Shown: positions 22,247-56,811, numbered from the stretch's first letter. The stretch is DNA of 64,000 bases from an uncultured Nitrososphaeraceae archaeon (GCA_963729045.1 CAVSMN010000017.1:1-64000); one strand, 5' to 3'. The notes: generated by a model not told the origin, from the letters alone. Numbers and translations: made by a program.

Positions 22247-22276
22247 ATCCGACCCGGCCCATTGAAAATATTGTCT
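22247..22276 (+). repeat. tRNA-Val-3' att-like site
   Basis: atccgacccggcccattgaaaa identical to 24731-24752. Confidence 0.85.
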
Positions 22277-22334
22277 AATTCTATTATGGTAATGTGAGGG
22301 AAAATCCTTGACATGAAGTTAACACTAATAAAAT

Positions 22335-22625
22335 TTACTCAATAATCCTATTCTCTCGTATTCTTTTTTCCTCTTCGGCCATTCCCTCATCCGTAATGCT
22401 AAATTCGTTACCATTTGATATTTCTACCAACTTGGAGTCATTCCATAATTTAATCAAGTCTACTTTCAAATATGCTTGATCTAATGAAGATACTCTATCC
22501 TCTAATTCTTGTATAGGGACTTTTTCTTGTCGCTCTCTTTTTTTTAGATATAGATGTGCTAATATAATACTCCTAACCTTTCGCTCTGCCTCTTCATCGG
22601 ATTCAAAACTCGATATATTATTCAT
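22335..22625 (-). CDS. 96-aa protein, possibly winged helix; cassette gene copy 1
   Basis: Near-identical to 54798..55088; ends ...FSITDEG, wHTH wing-like. Confidence 0.85.
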   Translation of the reverse strand: MNNISSFESDEEAERKVRSIILAHLYLKKRERQEKVPIQELEDRVSSLDQAYLKVDLIKLWNDSKLVEISNGNEFSITDEGMAEEEKRIRENRIIE

Positions 22626-22760
22626 ACTATTGAAATGCTAAAGTTGTTTAAATCCTTACATGATTGACTAGAATACATGATCGGGTTTGTTAATTTCAAT
22701 TTCCAGTGCTTCTTGCATACTAGATGTGTATATTTATCTGCGAGTAATACTTAATCATTC

Positions 22761-22808
22761 AGTCAACCAAAAACTATCCCGTTAATAATATGAATCCGAC
22801 TCGGCCAA
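22761..22808 (+). repeat. Dyad + tRNA-Val-3' att-like site
   Basis: agtcaaccaaaaactatcccgttaataatatgaatccgactcggccaa. Confidence 0.8.
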
Positions 22809-22885
22809 TAAGAACGATTTTCTAGTCGAAATTTGCCTTAAAATCTGAACAATTATTTTTAATTGATCAATTGTTTATATTCATA

Positions 22886-22939
22886 AGAACCCCTATTACC
22901 ATTAGGAACTTAATCCCTACGGATGAGAACTGTTATCAA
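22886..22939 (+). repeat. Dispersed repeat family 2, copy 3
   Basis: agaacccctattaccattaggaacttaatccctacggatgagaactgtta. Confidence 0.75.
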
Positions 22940-23067
22940 TATCGGGTTATAGTTAAAGTCAAACTCGCTTAGTTTTGGAATGGACATTCGTTAAGTCCTT
23001 ATTTGCAATGATTGAATCATGGGTGAATTAAGTTAATGCTTTTCCAAAGAGATCCAAGACCTTAGAT

Positions 23068-23308
23068 TCATATTATCAAAACTTCTGCTTGTTCTCTATC
23101 GCTTTTAGCCTTTTCAAATTTAAGTTTTAATTTACCGTTTCTAGGTTTGTATCTTAATCTGGTACCACAACAAGGGCAAAATACAGATATATTCCAAGTA
23201 ATATAAATATCGCAACGTTGACATCGTTTTTGTCCTTTTATATATCTGCCTTCGTTTATACTCTTTCCAGAAGCTTTGAATCTAGATACAAATCCCTCTA
23301 CAAACCAT
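23068..23308 (-). pseudogene. Small thaumarchaeal Zn-ribbon protein, +1 frameshift near the start
   Basis: MVCRGIC..FKA..GRYIKGQKRCQRC..W...FCPCCGTRLRYKPR. Confidence 0.7.
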
Positions 23309-23399
23309 TCAGGTACTGACTAGAAGATAAAGTGATTATTTAAAGCATGATTTTATTAAATTTATTGTATTATTATAGCAAATTAAATCAGAAGATCTA

Positions 23400-24084
23400 T
23401 TAAATAGATCTTATTTTTTTGAGCGCAAAAAAGAGGAAGGTTAATTCAACTCCATTATGTTCCCATCGAACAACCTTATCTTTACATGTAAAATCTATGG
23501 GTTCAATGAGTTCAAAGCCATTTTTTTCGCACTATTAATAATGTTATTTATTTCGTCCCTACTAAAAATAATATCAGGCATTCCGAATAAACAAGAATTC
23601 TTCGTACTGATTTTATTTTGCCAGTAGTCTGTAGATGTAAGAAGCATTCCTCCTTTCTTTAATATTCGATTCATTTCTTTAAAATATTTTTCAATATTAA
23701 TACTATGTTCTATGACGGATAAGCGATGTGATGTAATCAAACATATTATTTCTATAATTTGTGTTTTCTAGGTTTTGAATCGATAAGTTAAATTGCTTGA
23801 ATTCATTGTATCTCCGATTGTGATTTAGAAGATGACGAGAGGTAAAGGTCACATCCGTATAATTCTTTAAATCCAATCTTACTAAGCATTGACAAGATGG
23901 GACAAGTATTACATCCTACATCTAGAATAAATGATTCTTTATCTGCTTTATTTAAAATGTGGATAATTTTACTAATATCCCATGATTTTGATCTATCTGG
24001 ATGGGGAAATAGATGTAATGAATCTAGATAATTTATTGCTTCGTCTACCTCAAGCATATTTTTCAAGACCGAGTTGTATTTCAT
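23400..24084 (-). pseudogene. Class I SAM-dependent methyltransferase, fragmented
   Basis: ILDVGC, LYGCDL, LSVIEH and RILKKGG spread over several frames. Confidence 0.8.
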
Positions 24085-24696
24085 GGTTAAAATAGTTCTA
24101 ACCTGTAATTTATTAATTGCAAAGCCTAATCTATTGTTCTTATGATTATTTATCTTTAGAATTAATCATAAAGTATTTCTTAGTTGTTTCTTTTACTGTT
24201 GTTTTCCACCATTAAGATGAAATAACTTACAATAAATTGATTTTGTGGTATAATTCTATAATCCTATAAAAATCATTTTAGCTTCCAAATTTGGAGCAGT
24301 TTTCTTTTTCTACCATCTATCAATCGAACAAGTATCCAATCAAGGTCTGCTCTCTCTGGGCTATAAGATTAGTCGAAGATGAATTATAGTCAGTGGGTTA
24401 AATACTATGTTAACTATCCGTACTTGCAAACTACTGTAATTCCATCAGTAAACTTGCACCATAAATGTTGACTTACGGACAAGCCAGATCTCATAAGAAA
24501 TGAGACGTAGATGCTTACCATTACATTCTACTCCCTTTTCCTTTTATTATTTATTTTATTTATTATTATTTCTCATTGCTTCTTTGATATTTTCTTTAAT
24601 CTGTTATAGAGAAATGTATACGGATTTTAAAATAACATGTATTAATGATCGTGGTACATTTATCAAATTTGAGATTCAGTCACTCAGCAGCCAATT

Positions 24697-24752
24697 AGTC
24701 AACCCAAAAATTGTACCGTTAACAATATAAATCCGACCCGGCCCATTGAAAA
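24697..24752 (+). repeat. Dyad + tRNA-Val-3' att-like site (best-preserved copy)
   Basis: agtcaacccaaaaattgtaccgttaacaatataaatccgacccggcccattgaaaa. Confidence 0.9.
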
Positions 24753-24949
24753 TTTGTCTTTATTCTTGAATTCGTCGGATAGTCCACCGGATGAAATTAA
24801 GTTTGGAAAAGATTCTAGTGAAATGGTCAGACATGGATTTTAAAGTAGACTTTGAGTAAAATAGCAAAGAATTGTATCAGTGTGAAAGTGAATCTCGATG
24901 TCCATTGTCTTTGAACTATTAATTCTAAATAGATAAGAATTAATCCATT

Positions 24950-25333
24950 TTTTGAGATAAATCACTTGATGATCTACTAGTTAGTACAGATTTCTCAAAT
25001 GCCAAGGATCTTATAAAACAGACTGTAACTACCCTTTTAGATGACAAGAGGGATATATTAATTGCTGCAATTGTTACTCTAATCCAAGACATACAAGTTG
25101 ATCCATACAAAGGATTCTTAATTAGTAACCTTGACAATAACTTGGTTGGTAATGATGATCATAGTTTTATCACCTCAAATACTTTAGGTTATGATTTAGA
25201 GATCAAAAAGGTAGAAAATTATCTTATTACCTATGATTCACCGATCCTTGATTTGGCAAATATACTATATGATAAAATCTTAAAAATAGTTCAATATCAA
25301 ATCTTTTTTAAATCTAGATCATTCACAGATTAA
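24950..25333 (+). pseudogene. Remnant of a probable element-associated coiled-coil gene
   Basis: DLIKQTVTTLLDDKRDILIAAIVTLIQDIQVDPYK...; no intact start. Confidence 0.35.
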
Positions 25334-25468
25334 GATGACGCTAATTACTGCCTAGGATTCTTATTACAAGCCGCCCGATATTAACAACAAACTAAAGTCT
25401 GATTCAATGGGAATGCGTCTACTGGATCTAAATAATCATACCTTATTAGTGCTGGTGTGATACTATAG

Positions 25469-25726
25469 TTGATGAATATTATTGAAAATGAAATACCATA
25501 TCTAGTAGAGGCAAGAACATGCGGTTGTATTGAAAAGGGAAAAAGTGTTTCATATCATTTCATCGAGTCTTCTCATAGCCTTTGTCTAAATAAAGGTGAA
25601 TTGATGCTAGGTCAGATTCAAGCCTGTGAAAGATTATTGAAATATTCTAAAGATGATACTGAAGCCCTAGTGTTAAAGGATGAGATGACCAAATTGAGAT
25701 TGGCGTTGGATTTGATGAGATATTAG
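25469..25726 (+). CDS. Paralog family A small protein
   Basis: High similarity to 4293..4544. Confidence 0.8.
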   Translation: MMNIIENEIPYLVEARTCGCIEKGKSVSYHFIESSHSLCLNKGELMLGQIQACERLLKYSKDDTEALVLKDEMTKLRLALDLMRY

Positions 25727-26112
25727 GTTGCAAACACTTATTTTGAATTTGATGGGTATAGCTGTTCTCGACAGATTTAGTAATTATTCTTAAACTTGAT
25801 TACCAAAACTAAAATCATACTTCGGTAACACGGCAATCAAAAAGTACATATTTTCAAATCGATAATATGATCTCCTCTCATAATATATGGCTAAATTGAG
25901 TCAAATTCTATAAAATATTCACATACTAATCATCTATGTAAAATGACACATGATGTAATAATCATATATACATAATTTGGATTAATCTGAATTAAAATAT
26001 CATGATATTGTTAATCCACTGTATTTCTTAAATTTAGTTGTGAATTTCCGTACACGATACAGGATTCGGCAAAAACTTTCGTATCAATTTGGGTTGGACG
26101 AGGCTTTTTTTC

Positions 26113-26394
26113 TCAATTATTGTGACTTGAATTAGAGTCATCTGATCTGTATGATTTAAACTCGGTCCATTCCATATCAAGGACTAGATTATTGTTAACT
26201 TCCATGACTTTTGATATCGGAACATCAAATTTTTGATCATAATCCCCAAATATCGTTATCTCGGTATCTGTTATCCCCATCATAAAGCCCACGAAGTCTT
26301 CATTCAATAAACTTACTTTTTTGTTAAACAGAGAGTTAGGAAACCTATCTATAGCAGATTCGCTTGTTTCATTGTTGAAATAGTTCCTCTGCAT
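26113..26394 (-). CDS. Hypothetical protein (PRC/DUF2171-like beta barrel)
   Basis: KKV...FVG....KFDVPISKV pattern. Confidence 0.5.
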   Translation of the reverse strand: MQRNYFNNETSESAIDRFPNSLFNKKVSLLNEDFVGFMMGITDTEITIFGDYDQKFDVPISKVMEVNNNLVLDMEWTEFKSYRSDDSNSSHNN

Positions 26395-27105
26395 TACTTA
26401 AATTTCTAGATACCAAAATATCATTTCTATCTAACAAGTACCTTTTTAATTCGTCATTGCCGGTTATTTGCATTATTTAGTTATCAATTACCTTATCGAA
26501 TTTTTGAAATAAGACATCTGAGATTTTATTGTTTAATAGAATATCCACTTGTTTATTTTTCATTTTTCTTGGCTGCAATAGCCTTATGGAGAGAATGTAA
26601 AGACATCATTATACGATTAGAATTTTTCTCGTTTGTCATATCATATATATACATTTCGTATCTATTAAGTATGTCATGATGCATATCGTTGACAAATTGC
26701 TCTAATCGTTACTATAAATCGAAATATAGTAGATTTCAACTCGTTCTAAATGATAATGATACAAATATTATTCAGGCTATCAAAAATGGAAATCATATCA
26801 TTTTTGGACAATATTTGTAAATTAAAGGAATTAAGATTTATTAAAACTTCAAGAACATCTTACTTGGCCGGTTCCCTTGAATGTGATTAATATTTGTATT
26901 AAATCCCTCTAAAAAGTTGAGCTTGTAATATATTCTTTCAATTATTTTTCAGATATCAAAATTTTCGTATGCATCATTAATCATGACGAGTTTTGTTAAA
27001 TTAGTTCTTCCGAATATATTTATTATTCGCAAATTCTCTTGCTTTTTCTATGATACTATGATAAGTTACTATTTGTTGAACTGCCATGCATATTATAAAA
27101 GATAC

Positions 27106-27208
27106 TGTAAATATTATAGCCATAGAAAAGATAGATATCCCAGAAAATTCATTATCGTTGTAAATATTATAGCCATGAGAAAAGATAGATATCCCAGAAA
27201 ATTCATTA
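27106..27208. repeat. Tandem duplication of about 50 bp
   Basis: tgtaaatattatagccat(g)agaaaagatagatatcccagaaaattcatta at 27106-27154 and 27159-27208. Confidence 0.9.
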
Positions 27209-27649
27209 GAGTTGCCTATACCCTTTTATTTTTATCCAGACTATTTTGCTTTTCTTTATCATGTTCGGAGCCTATATTTTTGTCAGTAACTTTTACTTTG
27301 TTAAAAACTGCTTTAGTTCCGGCTTTCACCTTATTTCCTGTTTCATCTAAAGTGCTCTCATATATATCACGATGTCTTTCATATTCATCGGTACTTGTTG
27401 ATAATATCGACAATATATTCGCCGTGGTACTCCATATCTTTATCATATTGATTCCCAGACATTGCAGATCAGATTGTATAACATCGTATAAATATTCAAT
27501 ACTACTGTTACCAATTATTTTTGCGAGAATAAATTATTATAAAAGTAATATTGAACTAATATCTAAGGTTGTAATTGATTGTTAATGTTTTATAGTGTCG
27601 TTTGGAGCGGTTTTCTTACTACCTTTATTATTTGAGGAGTAATACTTAT

Positions 27650-27940
27650 TTACATTATCTTTTTCTTTTTACGATTATCTGCTTTGCTAGCAATATTATT
27701 TTTAGATCTTTTTCTTCTTATACGAACAATATATTTTGAAATAAGCTGAATCTCTTCTTTGAATCCAGTATATTTCCAACAGCATTTGTTAACAAGAGTT
27801 GATATAACAAACCAAATAATACTATTTACTATTACAGTAACTAAAAATCTATAATAATAAGCCATAAATGACCCAATCATTATACCTCCTATGAGATAAG
27901 GCATTTGACGTTTTAATACGGATTTTAATAGACTATCCAA
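27650..27940 (-). CDS. Small membrane protein with basic tail
   Basis: Two hydrophobic segments and a K/R-rich C-terminus. Confidence 0.5.
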   Translation of the reverse strand: MDSLLKSVLKRQMPYLIGGIMIGSFMAYYYRFLVTVIVNSIIWFVISTLVNKCCWKYTGFKEEIQLISKYIVRIRRKRSKNNIASKADNRKKKKIM

Positions 27941-28752
27941 AACGACTTCTACTCATTCCTGATTGTATAACATAGTTTATAGACAAGTGTAAGGTGATTG
28001 ATATGTTATTAGATTTAATACAATTATTCGAGGATAACAAGTTTAATCAATTCTTAGTTATAATAGATGACTTCCCCAATACTGTATTATAATTATAATT
28101 AATATACAATCATTCTACATTCAATATCTAAATTAAAGGGCCGATAATCTCTTGAAGACCACCAGGTAAACAAAATGAATATCCATTCTATATTATTAAT
28201 ATTAGTATCTCTATGTGGGTGAGAATGATTTGATTGATTAGCATCCTAAACTTTTTGTAACAAGACCTTAAAAGAGGTTTCAAAAATTTAATAGAATTAA
28301 AAAATTAGGGTGAATGGTCTTTTATAATTTCTTTATCAAGTTCTTTAGATATGCATCCGAGCCAGGAGAAAATTCTTGTGGAGCTTCAGGCATACTGGGT
28401 ATTTCAACATCTTGAGGAAACCCTTCAATTACTTCAAGAGTACCACCTTCATCAAATAGCGAATCACCTTTGAATATCTTATCTATCAACGCCTCTTCAC
28501 CCTCAGTTACAATAACTATTATTCCCCAGAACTACTGAAAACAAAACCATGAAAGGTTTCATTCACAATAAACTAGATGGTACCATTTACCACACTACAG
28601 AGACCCATTTTGAAACCATATTCCTTTTAAAAAATGTGTTTATCTTAATATGAAATAAGAAAGAATTAAATTGAAATCAAAAAGATTAGAAGGCAAAAAT
28701 AGAGATAAAAATATTGAATTGTATTCCTTAATTTACTCGGCGTGTCTTGGAC

Positions 28753-28956
28753 CTACATAGGTGCTGTTGAATTGCCAGTACCTGATGTCATATTTCTGCC
28801 CGTCATATTTGTGGAACCTGTATCCATCGTTGTCGAACCCATTTCACTCTCTGCAGTCGTTGGACCTCGAGCTATTGTTGCGGATGTAAAAGTGCCCGCC
28901 ATTAAAGAAGCTGTTGCAAGAATACTTGCGATTGCAAATAAGTAGATCTTATTCAT
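28753..28956 (-). CDS. Small secreted Thr/Ser/Met-rich protein
   Basis: First 24 aa identical to 48765..48968. Confidence 0.75.
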   Translation of the reverse strand: MNKIYLFAIASILATASLMAGTFTSATIARGPTTAESEMGSTTMDTGSTNMTGRNMTSGTGNSTAPM

Positions 28957-29998
28957 ACGATTTTACTGTATAATTTATACCATTTATTTTTTGTCTAAAA
29001 TGATGCTATATTTTTAATATACTTATATTATATAGTATATTGGATCGAAAGATCTCATTTATTCAATTAATAACATGATATTGCATTATTATGCCGCACC
29101 CGTACAACTATTGCATTGGGTCATCAGATGAAATATTATGAATAATTTAGAATCCTATCATGTGATCACAATGCATTCCTTCTTCCTTTGCAAATTTTAT
29201 CATGGAGGATCATCCTGTGATAATGTAAGTGTGAATCAATCATATGGTCATCGATCAACATGACACGACTAATTGCTAAATTTTTTCACAGAATTATGGG
29301 CTAAATAACCCGGATTGAAGAACTTGTCAAATGTGAATATCTCGACACTGTTTAATTTCATAATTATGATACTCTTAAAGGTATTTAATTAAACCTTGAT
29401 TTTGCTGAGCTTTATAAACAAATTTGCCATAATGCTATTATGGATTGATATGAACAAGATTAAACGTAAAAATAAGAAAAAGAATCCATATAGGAGTAGC
29501 GTAAATAGAACTTATGAAATGGTTTCCCTAGGTCTTCAGAGTGAGTTATTATGGCTGATGACTTATCAACCCTTTAACAAATTTGCAATTAACAATTGCA
29601 AATCAAGAATAAGGGGTTTAAAGAGTATGAAAAAAGCTTATAATCTATATACAGATTTTGGAGAAGTATTCTCTAATTATCCATAATGGTCAATTCCTAA
29701 CCCAAATGTCTCAGTAAGGAGTTTAACTAATTTTCTCGTGAATCTTTGAGCTACGATTTGATTTTGTACCCCGGTTTACTATGGTTCGACAATCTCTAAA
29801 CCCTTTTTTAATTGCTTTACTGTAATTGTACATCTGGGCCAATAATAATCAGTATTGTTGGTCGGAGGGAAACTATCTTGTTTTGTTAATAGTCGGAGTT
29901 ATGGATGAATCAGAAGTAACAAATTATCTAAAAGTTTTCAATAATCATATTATAGTATCGATATGCATATCCAATATCTATGATTTTTTAAAAAATAT

Positions 29999-30196
29999 TT
30001 GCAAATGTATCTTGAAAATGATATATCTGAAGTTGTATGTCCAAAATGCAATAAAAACAATGATAATTTAGAGGTATTGCGAATGCATGTTTTTACACAA
30101 AGTAACTTTGGTAAACATCCGTATTATGATATCATATGTAGTAGTTGTCATAAAGTATTCACCTCACAAGTATATCTTTCCATCGACGAGATATAA
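29999..30196 (+). CDS. Small Zn-ribbon protein
   Basis: CPKC...CSSC. Confidence 0.5.
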   Translation: MQMYLENDISEVVCPKCNKNNDNLEVLRMHVFTQSNFGKHPYYDIICSSCHKVFTSQVYLSIDEI

Positions 30197-37510: not shown

Positions 37511-38176
37511 AAAGATATCAATTTTGGAAATTGCATTTGTTTGCAAGTGATTACACTATCCTTATATCTTTCTTATCTTATCTATTGATACGCTGACATA
37601 AGCCGATCTAAATCTATACACATGCAAAACGGGCAACATTGAATAATAGATAACTTCAGAAACGTTGGATTGATAGGGAGTGAAATACCGCACTTACTCA
37701 AATGGTTAACGGTCTACAACATGATACTATTTATCCCTTAAAAGGTAGACGTTACCAAATATAAATGGTATTAATGACCGATATCCTCCTAACTAAAGAT
37801 TCTTACATAAGGATCGACGATTTAGAATAAGGATTTCTAAGAATGGGTAAAACTTTAATGAGCTATTCAGATTCCATCAGATTGTGCTAATAGATATGGA
37901 TAATAGTTAGACAACTAAATTAGAGTATCGCATTCTGAAAAAGGAGTCATGACTTGAAAAAGATGTTCGGTCAACAAGAGGGTATAAACTGGGTGAATAT
38001 CTTTCATCTAAACAATGAAAAAATATCCAATCAATTTGATACCTCTTTTAAATGGTGTAATCATATGCTTTTTTACCGGTTATAATTTTAATATCATTAC
38101 AATGAGGTTATAAAATTCAATTAGGATAGGTATTAATCATCATATTTAATAAGGTTATACACACATTTCAGGGACA

Positions 38177-38193
38177 CCTAACCCGGCCCATAT
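38177..38193 (+). repeat. Short tRNA-Val-3' att-like site
   Basis: cctaacccggcccatat. Confidence 0.5.
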
Positions 38194-44928: not shown

Positions 44929-46565
44929 CTAAATGGAAAATGGCCCCAAAATTATGAACGGAAAGAAAGTTAAAGCGGTCAGTAAGAAGGTAAGTGTAAT
45001 TAATACTGTTATAAACAATGGACCTTGAGTTTTAATTGGTTCTATTACTTCTTTTCTATCCTTTATTGTAAATGATCCTGCTATGGCCAACATTAATGCG
45101 AGTGGCAAGTACCTGCCAAGAAACATCACAATCGCAGTAGAGTAGTTCCAAAATGGAGTATCCGCTGACGCGCCAAAGTAATCAGAGCCATTATTAGCAG
45201 CTGCTGATGTATATTCATACAATGTTTGTGTATATCCCATGGGAGTAACTTCGTCTACCTACTATTGCTTGTGCATTTCCAGTCCCTAAAGCTATGACAG
45301 TGGGTATCAAAATTATTGCAGGATGTAACAGAAAGATATAGACAGCTAACTTTATGTCTTTGGGTTTTATTTTCATGCTCATAAACTCTGGCGTCTTGCC
45401 TACCATGAGTCCTACAATAAACAGGGTCAATAGCACGAAGATAATCATACTCATCATCCCTGTACCTACTGCTCCTGGAATAGCTTGTACAAACATAGCT
45501 AGGAAAAATGAAATCGTGGCTTCAGGCGACATCCCTGCCAAAGCAGAATTTGCAGCTCCGGTGTTTGTACCTAGAGAAACAGTATCAAATAAAATACTTC
45601 CAAAGCTTCCAAATCGGGTTTCAAGTAGTAATGGTCCGCTTTCTACGCTAGTTGCTATAATAATTAGAGTTCCAAAACCAATAAGCATAGCTACAAGAAT
45701 AGCTATACCCCTTCCTTTACCCATTAGTCGAGCATAAGTGATGGGAAAGGAGAGTGGAATAATAAGCATTAAAAACATCTCATACATATTGGATAATCCA
45801 GTTGGGTTTTCAAATGGATGTGCAGAGTTAGATCCAAAGAATCCTCCACCATTACTACCCAAGAGTTTTATCGATTCTAGAGATGCAACTGGCCCCATGT
45901 TGATTGTTTGAGTATTTGAGGAATTATTATTAATCGATATTCTCCAAAGTATTAGTTTCCACTGAAGGTTGAAAAGTTTGAGGAACACCAATAACCATCA
46001 AAACCAGTGCAGACACAACAGCAACTGGAAGTAATAAAGTTATAATAATTCTTGTCAAATCTACATAAAAATTTCCCAGTCCATAATTTTTTCGTATAAA
46101 GGAGCGAATAAATGCAAATGCAGCCGCAATTCCTGATGCAGGGGCTATAAACATTGTAAAAGTTATTGCAACCATCTGAGAAGTTATGGAAAGTTGTTGG
46201 TCTCCAACATAATGTTGTAAATTTGTATCGGTGATAAAAGATATTGCGGTATTAAAAGCAAGATCAAATGAAAAGCCCTCCTTACCTTCTGATAATGGGA
46301 GATAGTTTTGAAATGTTAAAACAAGGATAATAAATACAACTACTGCCATATTTGTAATAAATAAAGCAAGAAAATACTCTTTCCAACTCATTTGCTTAGT
46401 TGCGTTTATTCCAATTACTCTATAAAACCCGCTTTCTACTCTTGCAAGAGTTTTTTCCAATGGTCTCATTTCGAAGGTTATCATTCTAGCAAGGTAAGTA
46501 CCAAAAATGGTTGCTAGACCTATAGTTCCTACTATGAGAACACAAAACTGTATTGTCGTGTCCAA
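44929..46565 (-). CDS. kdpA: K+-transporting ATPase subunit A, split by two frameshifts
   Basis: FNTAISF.T.TNLQHY, LGSNGGGFF..NSAHPFENP, GLMVGKTPE and SAAANNGS. Confidence 0.92.
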
Positions 46566-47435: not shown

Positions 47436-47584
47436 ATCAAATACCCCAATTATCTATTCCAGTTTGAATGATAGATTTAGATAACTTTTGCATTGGACTA
47501 TCTTGTCCATTCCAGTCGATCTTCACTAGAATAACAAATAAAATCGTCAATTACAATTATTACCTCTTTTTTTGTTATTGGTGA

Positions 47585-48764: not shown

Positions 48765-48968
48765 CTAATAAGGTGTAGTTGAGTTGTCAGTACCTGTGGT
48801 ATTTCCACTCGTACCTGTTGTATTTGAGGCTGCAGCATCTGTTGTTGAGCTTGCGTCACCACTTGGTGTCGTTGGGGCTTGAGCCATTGCTGAAAATGTA
48901 AAGGTACCTGCCATCAAGGAAGCTGTTGCAAGAATACTTGCTATTGCAAATAAGTAGATTTTATTCAT
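48765..48968 (-). CDS. Small secreted Thr/Ser-rich protein
   Basis: Paralog of 28753..28956; upstream region also similar. Confidence 0.75.
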   Translation of the reverse strand: MNKIYLFAIASILATASLMAGTFTFSAMAQAPTTPSGDASSTTDAAASNTTGTSGNTTGTDNSTTPY

Positions 48969-49243
48969 GGTTTTTTAGATTATAAATTATCACTTATATT
49001 TATTATCTAAAACATTGCTATACTTTTGTTACATTCAGGTTATATAGTATGTTGTAAAATGAAGCTCTTTTTAATACAATAAATAACATAAAATCCTACC
49101 TGTTCCGCATAATTCATGATAAAAATTTAACATACTATGATCACACTCTGATCTCCGTGACCATTTGTGTGAAGTATAGAAAAGAGGAAAAGCCATTCAC
49201 GATTTCAGCGAGCTTCTACTTCCTTGTCAAACTAATTCATCCC

Positions 49244-49519
49244 TTAAGATGATATCAACCTTTTAAGATCTAAAAAAACTTCCTTGGTAATTTCGCCCTT
49301 TGCTAATCGTATCTTGAGTATCTGTTCCGGGTTGTTTTCCGTATTGGAAGTACCCTTAATCCTTGACTTTGTCAATCCTGCAGCAAGGGTCGATGTGAAG
49401 GAACTAGTAATTCCAATACCAAGAAACATAGTGATGGTTCCCACTATTATCCCTACATCGGTGGTTGGATTGGGTCCGAATGTAGCTGTTGATGTAGTTT
49501 GGATCGTCCACCACACCAA
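49244..49519 (-). pseudogene. Ion-channel pore-like fragment fused to SHOCT
   Basis: WWTIQT.ST..FG...P.T..G then a TM helix and RLAKGEITKE; the N-terminal TM appears missing. Confidence 0.6.
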
Positions 49520-49560
49520 AGCAAATATAAAAAAAAGGAATGTATTAATTCTCTAAAAAA

Positions 49561-49797
49561 CTAATTTTCTGTTTTTACGAATGGATCAATTTTTTGCTCG
49601 CTTGAATATATATCATCTGTATTGTTAGGATCTCCCTGTCTATGAGCATGTTTGATGTGATCATCTAGTTCAATCTTATTGCGCGCAACAAGTCCACATA
49701 TACTGCATCTTTCTCCGCCAGGTTTTTTATGGTCTGAATTTTCTTTTTGTGAAAACTCTTGCACCGGTGGTAATTCTGATCCTGGATCTGAACCCAT
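49561..49797 (-). CDS. Small C2H2 Zn-finger protein
   Basis: CSIC........L..HIKHAH. Confidence 0.65.
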   Translation of the reverse strand: MGSDPGSELPPVQEFSQKENSDHKKPGGERCSICGLVARNKIELDDHIKHAHRQGDPNNTDDIYSSEQKIDPFVKTEN

Positions 49798-50426
49798 ATT
49801 TAAAATATTGTGGTTTGAATATTAAACTCTTTCAATAAAATCAAAAACTTTTCAGTTTATCACCAGGTGTTTTACTCATCTTGGTTTCCCGTTAGTGAAG
49901 TAAAATGTAATTTGAAAACGGTATGAGGAATTAGTCCCTCGAGATTGCTAATAGATACTTATAAGTTGTTGTGCTTTTTCTATGTTTTCACAAATTATTT
50001 ATCCAGCATAATTCTAATCGCAACAAAAGGGCCAAATGTGTTAGGAGGATCAATTCTGAGACAGGCAAGACAGGAGCATCTCTTCTTTTAGACAAATTTT
50101 ATAATTAGAAACGATGACCTGGTTGGAATCTAATAGAAAACTGGGGAGAATGAAGGATAAAAAAGTTTTTAATGCAATATTTGAGAACACAAAATTCTGC
50201 AAAAGGACCCGGAATATCAATATTAACTATGTTGTAAATATGATATCTTATTTTGAAGGAATCGAATGTATTTTCGTCATCTTCCTCATTAATGTTAGAC
50301 TTGATACCTTCTTCATTTAGACCTATATGTTATCGTTAATAATCAGATACCAAAACATATAAACGACATTACAAACATCAAAAACTATTTAAGTTTAGAT
50401 CCATATGGGTAGTTATTTGAAATCGC

Positions 50427-51191
50427 ATGACCCAGATAACTCCTAATGTCCACTCAATAGAAGGTATAACTCATCCTGATCCGCGTGGAAAGGTATTTCC
50501 TTATTTGTTTGTGGAAGATCAAGATGATTTGACATTAATCGATCCTTCTTTTCTATCACAGTTACCAATAATTGAAAACTATCTGCTTGATATAGGTTAT
50601 GATATCAAGCATGTAAAACGTATAATCCTAACCCATGTCCATGTGGATCATGCACAAGCTGCCAATGAAGTAAAGAGGAAATCAGGTGCCAAGATTTATT
50701 CCCACTGGATTGAGGCAAGATATCTGAACCAGAACCCTCCATACTTGGGTCCTCCTTCTACACAAGAAACGGTTGAAAAATTAGAGAAGCTTGGAGTCTC
50801 AATGGGCGATTTAATAAAAGAATATGGAAGTTTCGATGTCGAACCTATTAATGTTGATCAGCAGGTGTCCGATGGGGATATGATTGGGAGTCTCAAGGTC
50901 ATCCACACTCCTGGGCATACACCCGGACATATATCACTATATCATGAAAAGGATAAACTTCTTCTGGGAGCAGATAGTATATACAAACACGTATTTGGTG
51001 CAGAGGGTATGTATATATCTGCACCCCAAGTATCGATAGACCCAGTTACAGCAATAGTGTCTGCACAAAGGCTCTCTAAAGTTAATTTTGATAAGTTATT
51101 GATGGCCCATCAGGATTCGCCATTGTTGGAAGGAGCTAGAGAGGCTGTCGAAACACTAGTGGCTGAAAGCATAAAAAAACTAAAGGGATAG
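50427..51191 (+). CDS. MBL-fold metallo-hydrolase
   Basis: THVHVDH, TPGHTPGH, GAD and AH. Confidence 0.9.
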   Translation: MTQITPNVHSIEGITHPDPRGKVFPYLFVEDQDDLTLIDPSFLSQLPIIENYLLDIGYDIKHVKRIILTHVHVDHAQAANEVKRKSGAKIYSHWIEARYLNQNPPYLGPPSTQETVEKLEKLGVSMGDLIKEYGSFDVEPINVDQQVSDGDMIGSLKVIHTPGHTPGHISLYHEKDKLLLGADSIYKHVFGAEGMYISAPQVSIDPVTAIVSAQRLSKVNFDKLLMAHQDSPLLEGAREAVETLVAESIKKLKG

Positions 51192-51865
51192 AAGTGTGAA
51201 CCCATCTCTGTTACATTTCTGATTAACCCTGTGATTACTACCTACGCTTTTTAGTTATACAGCAAAAATCAGTCATAGTAGTCGGTGGGTCGGACCATTG
51301 AACATCTTTCAGTGCATTACTCTCGACATCCTGCTACCTGGCAAAGCCTTGAACTAGATTATATGACCTGTTACTCCAATATCATATTAATCGTTATAAA
51401 GCTCCGAAGATACTTTTTTTGTCTTATTTGTTTCAAAGAATTTCATTAAATCGAATTTATTGTAAACCTACTAAGTCAACTTGAAAATATAAAACCTAAT
51501 GAATTCAAAGTAATATTATGTCTAAATCCTGCTCATCTTGTTGATTATCCTTAGAAAATAGGATTTAAGAAAACTTTCTCCCCAGTTATCTGCTTTTAAG
51601 ATCATTTCCACGCTTAGAACTATGCCTATATGCAAGAACAAAAAAGAGCTTTGTTCACATAAAGATAATTTGTAGCTTGATGATTTTATTCTGAAAGGAT
51701 TACCAGATATAAGAATTATTTAAGGTAGATCCATTAGATTTGAATTCGGAAATGATATTTTATGTAAAATTGGGATCTAGTTATTTCATACAGGATAGAT
51801 TAATTTGTGCAGCCACTATGAAAATGATTAAAACAAAAAATAGAAAATGATAAAAGATTTGTGTA

Positions 51866-52342
51866 TTATTGTTGGGCTAATGCGTTATTTCCAGAATTTT
51901 CTTGGTTTTGGAAGTTGAAATTGTTGCCAGAATCCTTGGTATCACCTCCAGAAACTACTTGGCTGTTCTGTCTTGATGATTGAGATTGAACAATTGCCTG
52001 GGATGCACTATTACCACCATCATCATCATCATCATCGTTACTCTGGGCTAATGCGTTGTTTCCTGAATTTTCTTGGTTTTGGAAGTTGAAATTGTTGCCA
52101 GAATCCTCGGTATCACCTCCAGAAACTACTTGGCTGTTCTGGATAGAACGTTGAACTTGTGCTATTATTTGTGATGCACTATTACCATCATCATCATCAT
52201 CATTGTCATGGTCTTTTCCACCTGCAAATGCGATATTATTGGAAAAAATCATTCCAACTGGAGATACAGTCATTACAACTGCCATTGCTGTTACTACAGC
52301 CAAAATGGAGATTTGTTTCTTGTTGATATTGATATTAGTCAA
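51866..52342 (-). CDS. Secreted Asn/Gln/Ser-rich protein with a 57-aa internal duplication
   Basis: Repeat with 171-bp period (51873/52044); poly-Asp linkers. Confidence 0.8.
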   Translation of the reverse strand: MTNININKKQISILAVVTAMAVVMTVSPVGMIFSNNIAFAGGKDHDNDDDDDGNSASQIIAQVQRSIQNSQVVSGGDTEDSGNNFNFQNQENSGNNALAQSNDDDDDDGGNSASQAIVQSQSSRQNSQVVSGGDTKDSGNNFNFQNQENSGNNALAQQ

Positions 52343-52927
52343 TTTGATAAATACAACATAATAATATACGATATAACTTGTATCAAAAACCGTTATCGTA
52401 AAATTATTGATAAGAATCTAATATAACAGTTTACTAGATTCTTGAAAAAGATAAATTAAAAAATTGAAGACCATAAAATCCAACATTCATGACTATTACA
52501 GTATAGATTGATGAAGATCATGGTCACGGCATTTGGTCCCAGATTACTAGATTTAGTAGCATAATTCGAAAGAAGAAATTTTTGATATAGCATCGTAGAA
52601 ATTCGCTTTTTCAAACTTCATGTATATGGTCCAATTCAACCATAATATGTCATCTAATGTTTACATACAACATATTTAAAGAAGTGCGTCGCTCAAAATA
52701 AGTCATCGTGCAAAATGCCCATGGAGTGACTTTCATCATAAAAGAGATGGTAAAGCACCTCGTTATCTTGCTATTTATCAATGGTATTTTCCTATTCCTT
52801 ATCCACAAAAGAACAAAATCAGCAACAGAATACAACATCAAGTTAATTGGACAGCCGACTAACTACTTTGAATTTAGCGCCGCCGTCATAGGAATATCGT
52901 CTGCAGTTATTGCAATTTTGATTGTAA

Positions 52928-53439
52928 TTGTTATTCGATCAAAACATAATGATAATCATTGCTGCTGTATTCATTTCTCTTGGGGCGGGGCGACAGATTT
53001 TTGCCTCGGCACTGGATGTCATAACAACGAACCTGAACGCCTTTTTGTCATCTTGGACATCAATTCTTCATTTGTTTGCAAAGAATAGACAGATGGGGAC
53101 GACACGAGGACGACAGATTGGAATACCATAGAAAGTAATCTCGAACTGATACTCATTAGCACGGGTAGGTATGATTTGCCTGTTAAACTTGATGGGGTAA
53201 AACCAGAATCTCAGCAAATATTATTAGATTATCTGGATGAGCATAAATTGGAATTAGAATATCAACAGGCTATTACAGATGATGATGCTAGCTGTCTTGC
53301 ATTTACCCAATACGCAATTAAACAGATGAGAGAGAAGTTGCTGTTATATAATGAACTGGAAGAACTACAGGAAAGAAGCGGAGGCGTTAATGCAATAATC
53401 TTGATAGCATTGGGAACGTTGATTTGGTTAATTTCATAG
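52928..53439 (+). pseudogene. Fragmented membrane protein
   Basis: ORFs 52928..53131 and 53176..53439 probably one broken gene. Confidence 0.35.
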
Positions 53440-53960
53440 TTTTGTGTTACTACTATTATTGTGTATGCAGTAATTGAACAATAAAATCCCTGATAAGATT
53501 TTGTAAACACAGAGATTTCACCTCAACAAACCAATATATGGCGTTTCCCTAGCCAGACTGTGTATTGATGGTACCGTATGTCAGAACCCAAAGAATTATC
53601 ATAGTATTGTTATGCTCACTGGTACTAAATAGCAATTTTTCTACAACTGAATATGTTTGATATTCCTGTTCCTTGCTACAAAGAACCCCAAGAATAATTA
53701 ATACTGCAAAGAAATGTTATAGTAAGACAGGGGACAGTTGTCATTTATCCTAGATTCATCAAACTAATCAATGCCCTTCGTGCTGCCGTGGAGAATGAGG
53801 AGGTTGCTAGATAAAGAATCAATTGGATAAATCAAGAAACACACACACGGCGAGGACAAAGTAGACTTTTAAAGTTCTGCATTGTTAGAAGCTTTTTTCC
53901 GCTAGGTATTGTATAGATACATACAACAACCATGAGGACAAATCAGTCTTCAATCAAGGC

Positions 53961-54242
53961 TTAGTTTTCTCCTGAAGGAACAAATGGAGTCTGAGGCTCA
54001 TTACAAATTGTTGGCCCATCATCCCGGGCATCAAAACAATTAACATCAGTTATGTTAGAAGTAGACTTTTTTTTACAGGAAGGATCCTCGTCTGTTGTTG
54101 AACTAAAAGGTGAATTTGGAAATGCGCATTCATCTTCTGGCAGCGGTTGTCCTTGAATTTGAATTGGTAAGGCAATTAAAGTAACAGTTGTCATAAACAA
54201 GGGTATCAAATATATAAAATGAAATAATCTTTTATTTGGCAC
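53961..54242 (-). CDS. Small secreted Cys-containing protein, paralog of 17292..17615
   Basis: Shared N-terminus, linker KK.TSN and promoter. Confidence 0.75.
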   Translation of the reverse strand: MPNKRLFHFIYLIPLFMTTVTLIALPIQIQGQPLPEDECAFPNSPFSSTTDEDPSCKKKSTSNITDVNCFDARDDGPTICNEPQTPFVPSGEN

Positions 54243-54680
54243 ACATTATTGATCCAAACCTATTTTATAAGATTTGCTATTAGTTTTGAATATTTCCTCA
54301 TCCTATAACATACATTAAATTAGTGGTTAAAATCAATATAGGTCTCGTTAGACATTCAATAATAATAAATTCATTGTCTTTGGTAACCAATATTGATAAC
54401 TATTCATTATGATATAACCAATTCTTAGGACATAATTTGAATAATCAGTGATTGAAAGTAGAATAGACCTTTTCAATTGAAAAGATTGATGAGTATTATC
54501 TATTCGTTTCTCATTATCGTAAAACTAAAAAAAATCAAGCGATTTGGACTCGTAATAAATTTATTACTAAACCCACAGGAAACCGATCCTTTGATTGATC
54601 TTGACTGAGACCCAAAGAAAAATCCGGTTAGATGATTGTCGAAGGATATGCGTTTGAAAAAGGTTACACAGTGAATAACC

Positions 54681-54731
54681 TAACCCACAAATTGTACCGT
54701 TAACAATATAAATCCTACCCGGCTATGAAAA
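54681..54731 (+). repeat. Dyad + tRNA-Val-3' att-like site
   Basis: aacccacaaattgtaccgttaacaatataaatcctacccggctatgaaaa. Confidence 0.85.
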
Positions 54732-54797
54732 TACTTTCTGATCATATAAGGTGAATGTGAAGGAAAATCCTTGACACGAAGTTAACAGGTATAAAAT

Positions 54798-55088
54798 TTA
54801 CTCAATAATCCTATTCTCTCGTATTCTTTTTTCCTCTTCGGCCATTCCCTCATCCGTAATGCTAAATTCGTTACCATTTGATATTTCTACCAACTTTGAG
54901 TTGTTCCATAATTTGATCAAGTCTACCTTCAAATACGCTTGATCTAATGAAGATACTCGGTCCTCTAATTCTTGGATGGGGACTTTTTCTTGGCGTTCTC
55001 TTTTTTTTAGATAAAGATGTGCTAATATAATACTCTGAATCTTTCGTTCTGCCTCTTCATCGGATTCAAAACTCGATATGTTATTCAT
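54798..55088 (-). CDS. 96-aa protein; cassette gene copy 2
   Basis: 93 of 96 aa identical to 22335..22625. Confidence 0.85.
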   Translation of the reverse strand: MNNISSFESDEEAERKIQSIILAHLYLKKRERQEKVPIQELEDRVSSLDQAYLKVDLIKLWNNSKLVEISNGNEFSITDEGMAEEEKRIRENRIIE

Positions 55089-55227
55089 ACTATTGAGATG
55101 TTAAAGTTGTTTAAATTCTTAACATGATTGAGTAGAATTTCTCTGATTCATATCTAAAGATATTAGAATATCAGAATATTGCAACTAGTTACCCTATCTT
55201 AAATACTTGATCTCCCAATGGTTATAG

Positions 55228-55653
55228 ATGACAAAATTAAACAAATTCAAATCTACTCATATATTTGGAGTAAGCGTTTTTATGGTCGCTCTAGTAGCGG
55301 GAACAATATTTAACTCACTCTCCATAGACGGTGTTTTTGGTAAACCTGTAGACGGTGGAAAGAAGAATTGTAAATCAGATTTTTTCTCCCGAACCTGCTG
55401 TTGGGCTGAAAGCAACGGTTACTTTATTTTTGAACGGTGTGAAACCTGCATTGATAATGGAGATGGTACATATGGACAATGTAAAACTGATGATCATCCA
55501 TTTAAAACAGATGAATCAGGCTCCAATATTGAGCATGATGACAACAGAGTACAAAATGATGATGGAGTCTTAGCAGATTCACAGGATTCTGATGTAGAAA
55601 CGAATAATCAAGTCCCGCTTGGTGGTGGTGGAGTATTTAGTAAACAACAATAA
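55228..55653 (+). CDS. Secreted Cys-rich protein with acidic tail
   Basis: Signal peptide; C..CCW..CETC..C. Confidence 0.75.
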   Translation: MTKLNKFKSTHIFGVSVFMVALVAGTIFNSLSIDGVFGKPVDGGKKNCKSDFFSRTCCWAESNGYFIFERCETCIDNGDGTYGQCKTDDHPFKTDESGSNIEHDDNRVQNDDGVLADSQDSDVETNNQVPLGGGGVFSKQQ

Positions 55654-56133
55654 TGCAGATTAAAAGGATCTCAAAGTATTTTCTATCCTATTTTTGAAAT
55701 TACTTGCAAGGATTAAAAACTATAAGCATCAGATAACAGACTGGTTTAACTTGCTTTCTCAATTGAAGAACACAAAGTGTTGATTCAACAAGTGATTTTC
55801 TAGAAGCACTGGCACGAGGCAAAAGGCGGGATCTTTGAACAACAACTACACCTAATGATCTTTAACACATTAATCTTTGCACGGGATCAAGAATTATTCG
55901 CGTTAATTGAAGCGCTCAAATCTACTAAAGTTCATTTTTCGCACCTAACCATTGATAAATTTTTGCATAGATAGAAAGAGCCAAAGTAAGCCTAAAACAA
56001 TATTCAAAATCACAAAGTAGCGAGATTAATTCTAAATGATAATCCTCCAATCACCAATTCTCTAATTATAAGAATTTATAGTTTTGGAAATTATTGACAA
56101 TGGTTAAATATTAGTATACAACAGGATAAGATC

Positions 56134-56608
56134 ATGATTCATAAACCATGTCTTTGGAAAAAGTCGGTATTTGTTATGACATTAGCGTTTATTTCAACAA
56201 TAATTTTCATAAGTGCACCAATTGTAAACAGTGTAAATGCGGCAGACAAAGAAGGCCCAGATTACGTTTGTAGACATGTTTCAGGTAGTGGCACTATAGG
56301 CCAAGTAAAATGTTGCTCTACTATATCGACCAATCCAAATTGATATTTGTGATAATACCACTCCACCAAGCAATTGTCAACCTGCTACAGTCGGAAAATT
56401 CAATCCAGGTAACGTTCTTCATTCAAATAATGGTGGAGTATTAAGTCAAAATGATGATTCATCTGACTCAACAGGCATTGATTCTAGCATAAATCAACAA
56501 GGAGGTACATTTAACGCTGATCAGGGCTCCAACAGTCCAAGTGATTCAGAAAATAAAGTTGATTCAAACAAAATCATTGAAGGAGGGAGTTTTAATCAAT
56601 AAACATAC
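56134..56608 (+). pseudogene. Secreted Cys-rich protein, frameshifted near 56341
   Basis: C...KCC, then the shifted frame ICDNTTPPSNC...GGVL..GGTF; 3' end approximate. Confidence 0.6.
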
Positions 56609-56764
56609 TGAAGAACATAAGTCCTTTTTTGTTGTGAAAATGCAGCGAAAACCACGGCCCTATCCTGAGATTGACCTTGGGTTATTAGACAAGAAACAAG
56701 GGATTTATGCTAGTATCCACGAATAAATACGAACTAGTGGTGTAATCATGAATGGTTTTGTTCG

Positions 56765-56811
56765 AACCACAAAATTGTACCGTTAACAATATAAATTCGA
56801 CCCGGCCATAT
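56765..56811 (+). repeat. Dyad + tRNA-Val-3' att-like site
   Basis: aaccacaaaattgtaccgttaacaatataaattcgacccggccatat. Confidence 0.85.

Follow-up and report, generated by a model that had tools for sequence, protein, structure and literature searches.

The window, that is, the whole 64,000-nt stretch of DNA analysed here, carries nine co-oriented sites with a common core of 13–17 nt that is the 3′ end of tRNA-Val(GAC). Between 3.6 and 58.8 kb they divide the contig into eight units, which measure 0.5 to 16.5 kb, rather than into the three small segments that an initial annotation of the sequence had described. The most probable explanation, to which we give a probability of roughly 70%, is that the region is an island built by serial integration at tRNA-Val(GAC), most units of which are now without an integrase. 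According to this explanation, circular elements would have integrated site-specifically, one after another, into the 3′ end of the tRNA gene, and the repeats would be their leftover attachment sites. Every integration would duplicate a short core (13–17 nt, or 42 nt for an SSV-type element) and regenerate the tRNA, and each new insertion would push the older ones downstream, to give a head-to-tail array in which all sites have the polarity of the tRNA.

Attached to the core is an arm of 25–35 nt, of which there are three conserved types that define classes 1 (corresponding to the 45-bp site), 2 and 3 (Table 1). The initial annotation had placed a site of about 45 bp at four positions on the plus strand, all of which are confirmed, with coordinates that were off by 0–4 nt. 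It had also listed copies of the right half alone, and these do exist at 22247, 8167, 38176 and ~58743, but they are not bare halves: because the core there is joined to a class-2 or class-3 arm, they are full sites of other classes. The core matches at 15/15 bases in the class-2 site (22247–22261) and at 12/15 in each of the two class-3 sites (8167–8181 and 38176–38190), and in the heavily decayed class-2 site it lies at ~58743–58757. Chance expectation is 0.00 for a 22-mer, 0.00 for the 45-mer and 0.01 for the 15-nt core, so that the observed sites are far beyond chance. A profile search of the whole 2.85 Mb assembly (nhmmer, E < 1e-6) returned eight matches, seven on the window contig and one at C15:4703–4749, at the start of that contig, with none elsewhere; all eight are on the plus strand, as had been claimed for the copies first noticed. 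Over 22 genomic instances, conservation of the class-1 site is restricted to ~46 nt that end in the tRNA 3′ end, with per-column values mostly of 80–99% and outer flanks at random level, values which are partly so by construction since the instances were gathered with patterns derived from the window. In the class alignments a short inverted repeat can be seen by eye in each arm class.

Table 1. Attachment-type sites, selected units and integrase remnant in the window (positions counted from its first nucleotide)
Feature	Position	Strand	Basis and remarks
SSV-type (Phage_integr_3) integrase gene, broken	2750–3889	−	C-terminal part 2750–3403; middle piece in other frames; N-terminal part 3614–3889
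42-nt 3′ half of tRNA-Val(GAC), anticodon loop to discriminator base	3590–3632	+	Inside integrase gene; att of SSV-type element
Class-3 composite site	8141–8182	+	Arm TTATACCCACATTTGAGGAACAC plus decayed core; nhmmer E 2e-13; alignment of 9 class-3 sites
Class-2 composite site	22214–22262	+	Arm of ATTACAGGCAAATATG type; nhmmer E 1.6e-14; alignment of 15 class-2 sites
0.5-kb unit with one gene, P0001 (22335–22625, −, 96 aa)	22263–22764		ORF call; recurrence in L062/L063
Class-1 composite site, decayed	22765–22808	+	nhmmer E 6.5e-7; 67% identity to reference copy
1.9-kb unit with class-I SAM methyltransferase module (23346–24150, −)	22809–24700		tblastn with intact 227-aa L042 protein
Class-1 composite site, perfect (arm plus 17-nt core)	24701–24746	+	Exact 45-mer, identical to consensus of initial annotation; nhmmer E 2.6e-15
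Class-3 composite site	38152–38191	+	nhmmer E 7.3e-11
Class-1 composite site, core one base short	54682–54725	+	nhmmer E 3e-12
2.0-kb unit	54726–56764		Paralogous to the P0001 unit over the first 0.45 kb (90% identity; repeat family D2); remainder unrelated
P0001 paralogue gene	54798–55088	−	In 2.0-kb unit
Class-1 composite site	56765–56809	+	nhmmer E 2.4e-13
1.9-kb unit with universal stress protein gene (57049–57618, +)	56810–58714		Pfam Usp
Class-2 site, heavily decayed	58715–58757	+	By eye and alignment to class-2 site of L064; not significant in profile scan

The right half of the site is identical to the 3′ end of tRNA-Val(GAC) in 8/8 same-genus loci examined (L005–L012), and the identity ends exactly at the discriminator base of the tRNA. 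This agrees with the proposal that the repeats are of att type and derive from the tRNA-Val 3′ end, and the proposed link to a tRNA-Val fragment inside an integrase gene also proved correct, the fragment at 3590–3632 being a tRNA 3′ half by comparison with tRNA-Val(GAC) of the same eight loci; its match to the core has 2 mismatches. The tRNA-Val(GAC) gene is absent from the assembly, which is 87% complete, and we therefore infer the anchoring of the window array from relatives. Composite sites are also present in sibling species, often directly downstream of intact tRNA-Val(GAC), and six contigs of relatives include the tRNA gene as well as sites (G020, G007, G018, G046, G002:C233 and G042:C51); on these, the sites are found on the downstream side of the gene and share its polarity. 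Arrays need not stay at the tRNA, because in the one-contig genome G041 three class-1 sites are found >1.2 Mb away from tRNA-Val(GAC), and neither the 7 kb upstream nor the 11 kb downstream of that gene contain a class 1–3 site.

The orientation bias extends to the relatives, where 66 profile matches fall into 25 loci, 18 of them with at least two sites, and strands are never mixed within a locus; many of these relatives are fragmented metagenome bins, the short contigs of which are possibly mis-binned. A further 12 metagenome contigs contain a class-1 site, with at least nine distinct left flanks. The arms are ~91–100% conserved between genomes that are only ~80% identical in rpoB. The part of the site that does not derive from the tRNA, on its left, would be the element-side arm of the attachment site in all three classes, and we propose that the arms are conserved because the recombinase needs them.

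Intergenic, strongly conserved and co-oriented sequences that contain an inverted repeat in each arm class could in principle be regulatory or RNA-processing signals, for example terminators or tRNA-like 3′ tags, which resemble a tRNA end without being recombination sites. This is very improbable, given the exact end of identity at the discriminator base, the integrase genes or fragments that adjoin the sites in relatives, and the enrichment of synteny breaks at the sites; moreover, the sites have no consistent relation to transcripts because the flanking genes are on both strands. The idea that repeats of 45 bp have led to a chimeric contig with an unreal array order is scarcely credible either. 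The draft assembly comprises 22 contigs and shows signs of single-base indel errors, and contigs from public runs tend to end near sites, but the site at 22765–22808 is bridged by independent contigs from two runs, the same junctions are present in other genomes (the P0001 unit together with its decayed site, and the Usp unit with a site on either side), and like arrays occur in single- or few-contig genomes (G041, G046 and G020).

Two integrase families are associated with tRNA-Val(GAC) in the genus: an SSV-type enzyme and a divergent, putative tyrosine recombinase of ~400–450 aa. We propose that at least these two families act on the target, the first with an internal site and the second encoded immediately downstream of the tRNA. 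The only representative in the window is the broken SSV-type gene (Pfam PF16795 match to the ORF at 2768–3391, E 4.4e-6), to which the intact relatives from L048 and L049 align in tblastn with 63–83% identity across three frames, and a TGA stop in it arose by a substitution in a T-loop codon. It resembles the ‘suicidal’ SSV-type integrases in its match to Phage_integr_3 and in the tRNA half inside its reading frame (PMC7253208). The att at 3590–3632 is located between the N- and C-terminal parts, and in L048 and L049 the frames of the intact genes read through the internal 42-nt site. Integration should split such a gene between the ends of the element, whereas in the window the two parts are adjacent at 2750–3889 and the gene is broken, an arrangement that represents either the junction of two tandem elements or an unintegrated state. 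An SSV-type integrase also leaves the class 1–3 arms unexplained.

The gene of the second family follows tRNA-Val directly in L055–L058; in L019 and L095 it directly follows a class-1 site, although all three arm classes precede the same integrase-side flank in different loci. The initial annotation had taken the SSV-type integrase to be the mover of the units; judged from sequence, the second family is more likely the partner of the class-1 site, because it adjoins the tRNA and class-1 sites in this way, whereas the att of the SSV-type gene is a 42-nt tRNA half inside its own reading frame. There is no second-family integrase on the window contig, no intact tRNA-Val-specific integrase in this assembly, and no match to PF00589 in the genome at E ≤ 0.001. 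The stretch C15:126–4749 is an element of the second-family type from which the integrase is deleted, with a class-1 site at its far end. The second-family protein scores 22.1 bits against PF00589 (below the cut-off of 27.1) and 33.5 bits against NCBIfam XerA (far below the cut-off of 220), and it has no sequence match in the PDB. Tyrosine recombinases have a catalytic R...HxxR...Y signature; in the L057 protein the motifs RIGAF, HGLRKF, LMGHS and SYYRP can be picked out by eye.

The units contain accessory cargo that includes transporters, a Kdp ATPase, hydrolases, a methyltransferase and a stress protein, among others. The 0.5, 1.9 and 2.0 kb segments yielded no recombinase, in line with the initial annotation, and there is one broken integrase gene for the eight units of the window. 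In this genome the integrases of the units would have been lost or never present, and the contig thus appears to be an accretion island of eight att-bounded units with accessory genes. Several units can be followed into other genomes. The P0001 unit recurs, site-bounded and with 94–96% identity, in L062 and L063, where it is closed by the same decayed class-1 variant that is found at 22765–22808; it is preceded by a class-1 arm in L062 and by a class-2 arm in the window. Similarly, the Usp unit has a homologue in L064 (82% identity) with cores at both ends and a class-2 arm before it, where the window has class 1. The methyltransferase module, which in the window is spread over three reading frames, is found with 91–95% identity and identical ends in seven other genomes, and in three genomes it starts 12–44 nt past a core. 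Very small or empty units also occur, of ~320 bp in L094 and as back-to-back class-3 and class-2 sites in L069.

Breaks in synteny are over-represented at the sites: of 158 between-species alignment endpoints, 43 are ≤60 nt from a site, whereas shuffling gave a mean of 12.0 (sd 4.9, maximum 32). The other 115 endpoints lie away from recognised sites, and there is no site at the well-resolved breakpoint at window position 52495/52610. Of 86 shared modules, 76 have a constant orientation with respect to the sites. Even between genomes with 96% rpoB identity the units stand in a different order, and units recur in other species beside other neighbours. The enrichment and the permutation together indicate that recombination at the sites has continued, and it would have permuted and deleted units and exchanged them between lineages, with either an integrase in trans or homologous recombination between repeats as the agent. 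The module identities of 91–95% are not above the rpoB identity in the same genomes (92–96%) and so give no sign of recent transfer, and a search of assembled public-run contigs revealed neither excision nor a circular junction joining two sites.

Such behaviour raises the possibility, albeit a doubtful one, that the genus has a tRNA-anchored cassette system, in which composite sites of ~45 nt (an arm plus the last 13–17 nt of the tRNA) would be substrates of trans-acting tyrosine recombinases, and units down to single genes would be captured at tRNA-Val(GAC) and tRNA-Gly(CCC), stacked with one polarity, permuted and passed between species. As a rival to simple accretion, a dedicated system of small non-autonomous units would have the ~45-nt site as an evolved signal, with integrases in trans that routinely excise circles and re-insert them at the tRNA or other sites, and in function it would be comparable to an integron or to cis-mobilisable elements. 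We consider this unlikely. It would account well for single-gene units bounded exactly by cores but with differing neighbours (P0001, Usp and the methyltransferase), for permuted unit order at such high rpoB identity, for arms that are conserved well beyond rpoB, for tiny or empty units, and for the same integrase-less architecture with perfect repeats at tRNA-Gly(CCC). However, decay has affected several cores, the majority of breakpoints lie away from sites, module identity does not exceed that of rpoB, and the assembly is without an intact cognate integrase. Neither a circle nor an excision junction was seen among the public-run contigs, a viral contig collection yielded no class-1 or class-2 site, and homologous recombination between repeats could also permute the units.

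Accretion at a tRNA gene has precedents. A published survey describes thaumarchaeal att sites as short (median 17 bp) and arrays that arise through re-use of one att site as already known, and it does not name ‘Nitrosocosmicus’ among its genomes (0 occurrences in that text; PMC6563490); integrase loss following integration has likewise been reported (PMC8371274). Archaeal tandem tRNA arrays share with the window direct repeats of the tRNA 3′ end, co-orientation, short att sites and integrase loss, as well as integrase genes beside the site, which in the present genus are seen in relatives. However, the described arrays consist of two or a few complete elements, whereas the window has nine sites in 55 kb with one broken integrase, units as short as 0.5 kb with one gene, a single core combined with three conserved classes of arm, and a pattern that is genus-wide and found also at tRNA-Gly(CCC). 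The tycheposons of Prochlorococcus are tyrosine-recombinase elements that enter tRNA genes, newcomers pushing older ones into an island with partial tRNAs, fragmented integrases and cargo genes; they are bacterial, their att is ~40 nt and their integrases form a clade of their own (bioRxiv 10.1101/2020.12.28.424599). The likeness lies in integration at tRNA genes, downstream stacking, integrase fragments and cargo. Tycheposon mobility was demonstrated by PCR and experiments, whereas the present array is described from sequence comparison.

A further parallel is provided by the cis-mobilisable elements (CIMEs) and the accretion-mobilisation of streptococcal integrative elements. CIMEs are att-flanked units that lack an integrase, stand in tandem beside related elements at a target of tRNA type, and are probably mobilised by the integrase of a neighbour. 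Their origin is in conjugative elements, and their mobilisation in trans has reportedly been demonstrated by experiment. The window units are likewise att-flanked, without an integrase and in tandem at a tRNA-type target. The array was initially likened to an integron, with which it has in common a one-polarity array of small gene units, a recombination site at the end of each unit and insertion at one anchor, but this comparison fails in its defining features and the array is not an integron. The window has no IntI, its only integrase remnant being the broken SSV-type gene, and its sites are conserved in sequence and derived from a tRNA, whereas attC sites are structured, of variable sequence with a conserved imperfect palindrome. 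Integron cassettes are mostly promoterless and in one orientation, whereas genes in the window are on both strands (P0001 and the methyltransferase on the minus, Usp on the plus strand) with their own upstream regions, units can carry many genes, and the anchor is a tRNA gene. If the doubtful cassette system were real, archaea would have in it a functional equivalent of integrons and tycheposon islands, one in which the individual unit can do without an integrase.

The contig illustrates how a large island of accessory genes can grow through repeated insertion at a single tRNA gene. If the accretion reading holds, a few tRNA genes are the places where much of the accessory gene content of the genus, including genes for transporters, stress proteins and hydrolases, is acquired and reshuffled, and a type of island formation for which detailed documentation has so far come from marine cyanobacteria would extend to archaea. 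The composite sites are a simple sequence handle for delimiting islands in draft genomes and metagenomes, for finding the responsible integrases and for testing whether integrase-less units, which might be mobile today, still move; they offer defined short recombination sites and candidate enzymes for experiment.

The P0001 protein matches no entry in Pfam, PHROG or NCBIfam. It may be a small winged-helix protein, to judge from an Atlas lead with scores of only 0.86–0.87.

The sites of the window share with those across the genus a common core, CCGACCCGGCCCA, with one of three conserved arms in front of it. The 45-bp site reported in the initial annotation (class 1) is present once with its exact consensus and in three related copies, and what had been taken there for copies of the right half alone are full sites of the two other arm classes (see the table). 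The 15-nt right end occurs with at most two mismatches at 3618, 22247, 22794 and 24731, always on the + strand, against a chance expectation of 0.01. In the source assembly (a 2.85 Mb draft of 22 contigs, 34% G+C and 87% complete), profiles built from the site alignments gave eight matches with E<1e-6 over the whole genome, seven in contig C17, of which the window is positions 1-64000, and one at C15:4703-4749; all eight are on the + strand, so the single orientation noted earlier holds. Between 3.6 and 58.8 kb, nine sites, counting a 42-nt tRNA half and a decayed copy, delimit eight units of 0.5, 1.9, 1.9, 2.0, 4.5, 13.4, 14 and 16.5 kb. Two weaker candidates were taken as chance: an arm-1-like stretch with four mismatches at 20778-20799, which the profile missed, and a profile match at C17:66354-66389 with a genome-wide E of 0.13. 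Near-empty units were seen in two other loci: in L069 (4193-4277) only about 12 nt, and no cargo, separate a class-3 site from the class-2 site behind it, and in L094 (423-826) class-1 and class-3 sites are only about 320 bp apart.

Sites of the window, a second-family element, and integrase genes or fragments beside tRNA genes in the source assembly (G000)
Feature	Arm sequence	Position
Class 1 sites	AACC(C/T)CAAAATTGTACCGTTAACAATATAAAT (consensus)	22765-22808; 24701-24745 (exact 45-bp consensus); 54682-54725; 56765-56809
Class 2 sites	about TTGACCTGTAGATTACAGGCAAATATGACCTGCAT (consensus)	22214-22262; 58715-58757 (decayed copy)
Class 3 sites	GGATTATACCCACATTTGAGGAACAC (consensus)	8141-8182; 38152-38191
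42-nt 3' half of tRNA-Val(GAC), within the SSV-type integrase gene		3590-3632
Second-family element		C15:126-4749
Integrase genes or fragments beside tRNA genes		C12:401058-402394; C14:114694-116010; C7:141370-141945; C15:72828-73803; C11:165591-166945

The right end of the sites corresponds to the T-stem, acceptor stem and discriminator base of tRNA-Val(GAC) in eight of eight loci from relatives (pattern search), which bears out the T-arm and acceptor origin first proposed. ARAGORN found no tRNA gene in the window, and none of the tRNAs of this 87% complete assembly has the 3' end of the core. The only match in the assembly to the upstream flank of tRNA-Val, C3:15962-18417, corresponds to sequence that in the related genome G046 lies 6.7 kb upstream of the tRNA; a contig order of C3, C17, C15 would be our guess. 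Across 25 fetched loci with 66 profile matches, 18 of them with at least two sites, strands are never mixed within a locus, and on the six contigs that carry both the tRNA-Val(GAC) gene and sites, the sites lie downstream of the tRNA with the same polarity. In G020, for example, the tRNA is followed after 4.1 kb by a class 1 site, after a further 0.5 kb by class 3, and then by two class 2 sites at intervals of 3.7 and 1.3 kb. There are two exceptions. In locus L048 an intact SSV-type integrase gene with its internal site is inverted and lies 7.5 kb upstream of the tRNA. In G041 (loci L079, L080 and L043), a genome in one contig, the tRNA at 3.17 Mb has no site nearby, and three class-1 sites lie at 0.63 and 1.03 Mb, more than 1.2 Mb away on the opposite strand; this array may have been relocated by inversion between att sites.

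We consider that the window is an accretion island at tRNA-Val(GAC) and that this explains the array, with a probability of about 0.72. Elements would have integrated serially and site-specifically at the tRNA gene, each event duplicating the core; the arm would be the element-side part of the site, and the observed anatomy, with one polarity and with integrase genes or their remains beside some of the sites, is that of such a history. The process is already known from archaea, and thaumarchaeal att sites are typically short (PMC6563490; PMC8371274). The closest detailed parallel is the island building by tycheposons in Prochlorococcus (bioRxiv 10.1101/2020.12.28.424599). The array goes beyond described cases in its dense sites with almost no integrases, its single-gene units, its three conserved arm classes on one core and a pattern that extends through the genus. 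The initial annotation had instead read it as an integron-like array of non-autonomous cassettes moved in trans by the tRNA-Val integrase. The stacking in one polarity of units that each end in a recombination site is indeed shared with integrons, but every defining integron feature fails in the window array. As for the proposed mover, the integrase gene does hold the tRNA half, but the copy in the window is broken, and the class-1 arm points, suggestively, to another integrase family. A dedicated system of trans-mobilised cassettes seems to us possible but much less likely.

Two integrase families appear to use the tRNA-Val(GAC) target in the genus, their catalytic role being presumed. The SSV-type genes (Pfam Phage_integr_3) contain the 42-nt tRNA half and lie on the strand opposite to the tRNA. 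They are intact in loci L048 and L049; that of the window is spread over three frames, and the assembly has no intact tRNA-Val integrase. Genes of the second family (about 400-450 aa) adjoin the tRNA on its downstream side, in the same orientation; they follow tRNA-Val in L055-L058 and a class-1 site in L019 and L095. Two sub-threshold profile matches and motifs read by eye suggest that these proteins are tyrosine recombinases; they have no sequence match in the PDB. The left end of the second-family element of the source genome is marked by a core plus tRNA remnant, and its right end by a class-1 site. The element carries cargo genes and has kept no more than the final ~38 codons of its integrase, a gene that the near-identical relative L012 retains. 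This element is suggestive of the class-1 arm belonging with the second family rather than with the SSV-type gene. Paralogues of the second family adjoin tRNA-Arg and tRNA-Lys in the source genome. For the second-family elements at tRNA-Lys and tRNA-Arg of G041, no distal repeat of at least 12 nt was found within ~19 kb. Other tRNA genes of the source genome (Arg, Lys, Ser, Thr and Ala) have an integrase gene or fragment of either family directly beside them.

The sites are widespread in the genus. A 33-nt class-1 pattern with up to three mismatches occurs at 28 places in 17 of its 34 genomes and the exact 13-nt core at 60 places in 26 of them, and the reversed control pattern gave no match in either search. 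In an alignment of 22 class-1 instances only ~46 nt are conserved, mostly at 80-99% per column, with an outer left flank at 30-50% and right flanks of several types; this conservation is partly by construction, since the instances were gathered by pattern, and the 5' part of the arm, which lies outside the pattern, is conserved too. The possibility that the arms are coding sequence from the C-terminal parts of SSV-type integrases was rejected, because the 22 left flanks have nothing in common past the arm. The class-1 site is present in 12 more metagenome contigs, with at least nine different left flanks. Class-1 sites with only 0-3 changes are found in genomes whose rpoB region is only ~80% identical to that of the source genome, which argues for constraint or spread, with the caveat that short contigs of metagenome bins may be mis-binned. 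A viral contig collection held no exact match to the class-1 or class-2 arm with core.

The expectation that synteny breaks at the sites was borne out in part. In alignments between different genomes, 43 of 158 endpoints have a site of either partner within 60 nt, compared with a mean of 12.0 in 500 shuffles (sd 4.9, maximum 32), for alignments that are not mutually independent and loci chosen for having sites; the other 115 are not at recognised sites, and the breakpoint at 52495/52610 has no site. Orientation relative to the sites is kept in 76 of 86 shared modules, and unit order differs between the source genome and G004, whose rpoB is 96% identical. Module identities of 91-95% are no proof of recent transfer, because rpoB is 92-96% identical in the same genomes. 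It is likewise unsafe to call cargo decay from the frameshifted methyltransferase, KdpA and integrase genes, because rpoB is also split into two frames (L075, G000:C7:79847-80969) and single-base differences from the window are common to four public runs. Specifically, contigs of these runs agree against the window on single-base indels at 12042, 20232, 20354 and 21550. The draft assembly therefore probably has indel errors, and a frameshift in it is, without reads, no ground for calling a gene a pseudogene. Among these gene breaks, the TGA of the integrase is the only one that arose by substitution. KdpA, in three overlapping ORFs beside KdpB and KdpC (44929-46565), may reflect decay or assembly indels.

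The comparison with the public runs, made with assembled contigs from four runs of four studies over 8001-28000, gave no joint between sites and no circular junction, which is uninformative on excision since assembly drops rare forms. Contigs of two runs bridge the site at 22765-22808. In run X1, the class-1 site stands in other contexts, as the loose ends at 24707 (before) and 24746 (behind) show; these may derive from other species.

Arrays of this kind are not restricted to tRNA-Val. At C13:91703-106035 (L076, 1704-16036), six perfect copies of the last 24 nt of tRNA-Gly(CCC) lie behind the gene in its orientation, spaced 1.3-3.6 kb apart. The units have as cargo alpha/beta hydrolases, an aquaporin, a luciferase-like oxidoreductase and a PKD protein; they contain no integrase. 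Further copies lie at C10:135602-170538 and C16:120023, and inverted T-arm copies (GGGATTTGAAC) are present in the flanks. Repeats of tRNA-Gly(CCC) are present in 32 of the 34 genomes, where as many as seven perfect copies share one orientation within 17-25 kb, and a Phage_integr_3 gene is found ~0.8 kb downstream from a copy in other genomes. The tRNA-Val array therefore exemplifies a feature that is general in the genus.

Several units recur in other genomes, again with cores at their ends. The 0.5-kb unit at 22263-22764, whose one gene encodes the 96-aa protein P0001, is found in L062 and L063 at 94-96% identity, with the same decayed class-1 site at its end and a class-1 arm before it, as against the class-2 arm in the window; the unit after 54725 begins with a 90% identical copy of the first 0.45 kb of this unit. 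P0001 has no match in Pfam, PHROG or NCBIfam, and its Atlas neighbours from winged-helix families reach scores of only 0.86-0.87, a lead and nothing firmer. The Usp unit (56810-58714) matches, core to core, a unit of L064 that has a class-2 arm before it. Seven other genomes share the ends of the methyltransferase module (23346-24150), which in three of these starts 12-44 nt past a core, in one case directly after the tRNA itself. Two short stretches of ~40-60 nt, 22883-22941 and 55153-55191, recur at 82-97% identity in many unrelated places of the source and other genomes of the genus; they could represent miniature repeat elements or promoter regions held in common. Within the 14-kb unit at 8183-22213, a protein of 344 aa (10785-11819) that has a PriX (primase) domain at its C-terminus may be a replication gene of a former plasmid-like element. 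A CAP-domain protein gene (15473-16249) contains seven tandem 24-nt copies (15466-15681) and is related to a CAP fragment at 19368-19703. Finally, G004 lacks at the corresponding position the 3.5-kb piece at 61036-64585, which carries a zinc alcohol dehydrogenase gene; the homologue in G002 lies immediately upstream of tRNA-Val, with the relative orientation reversed.
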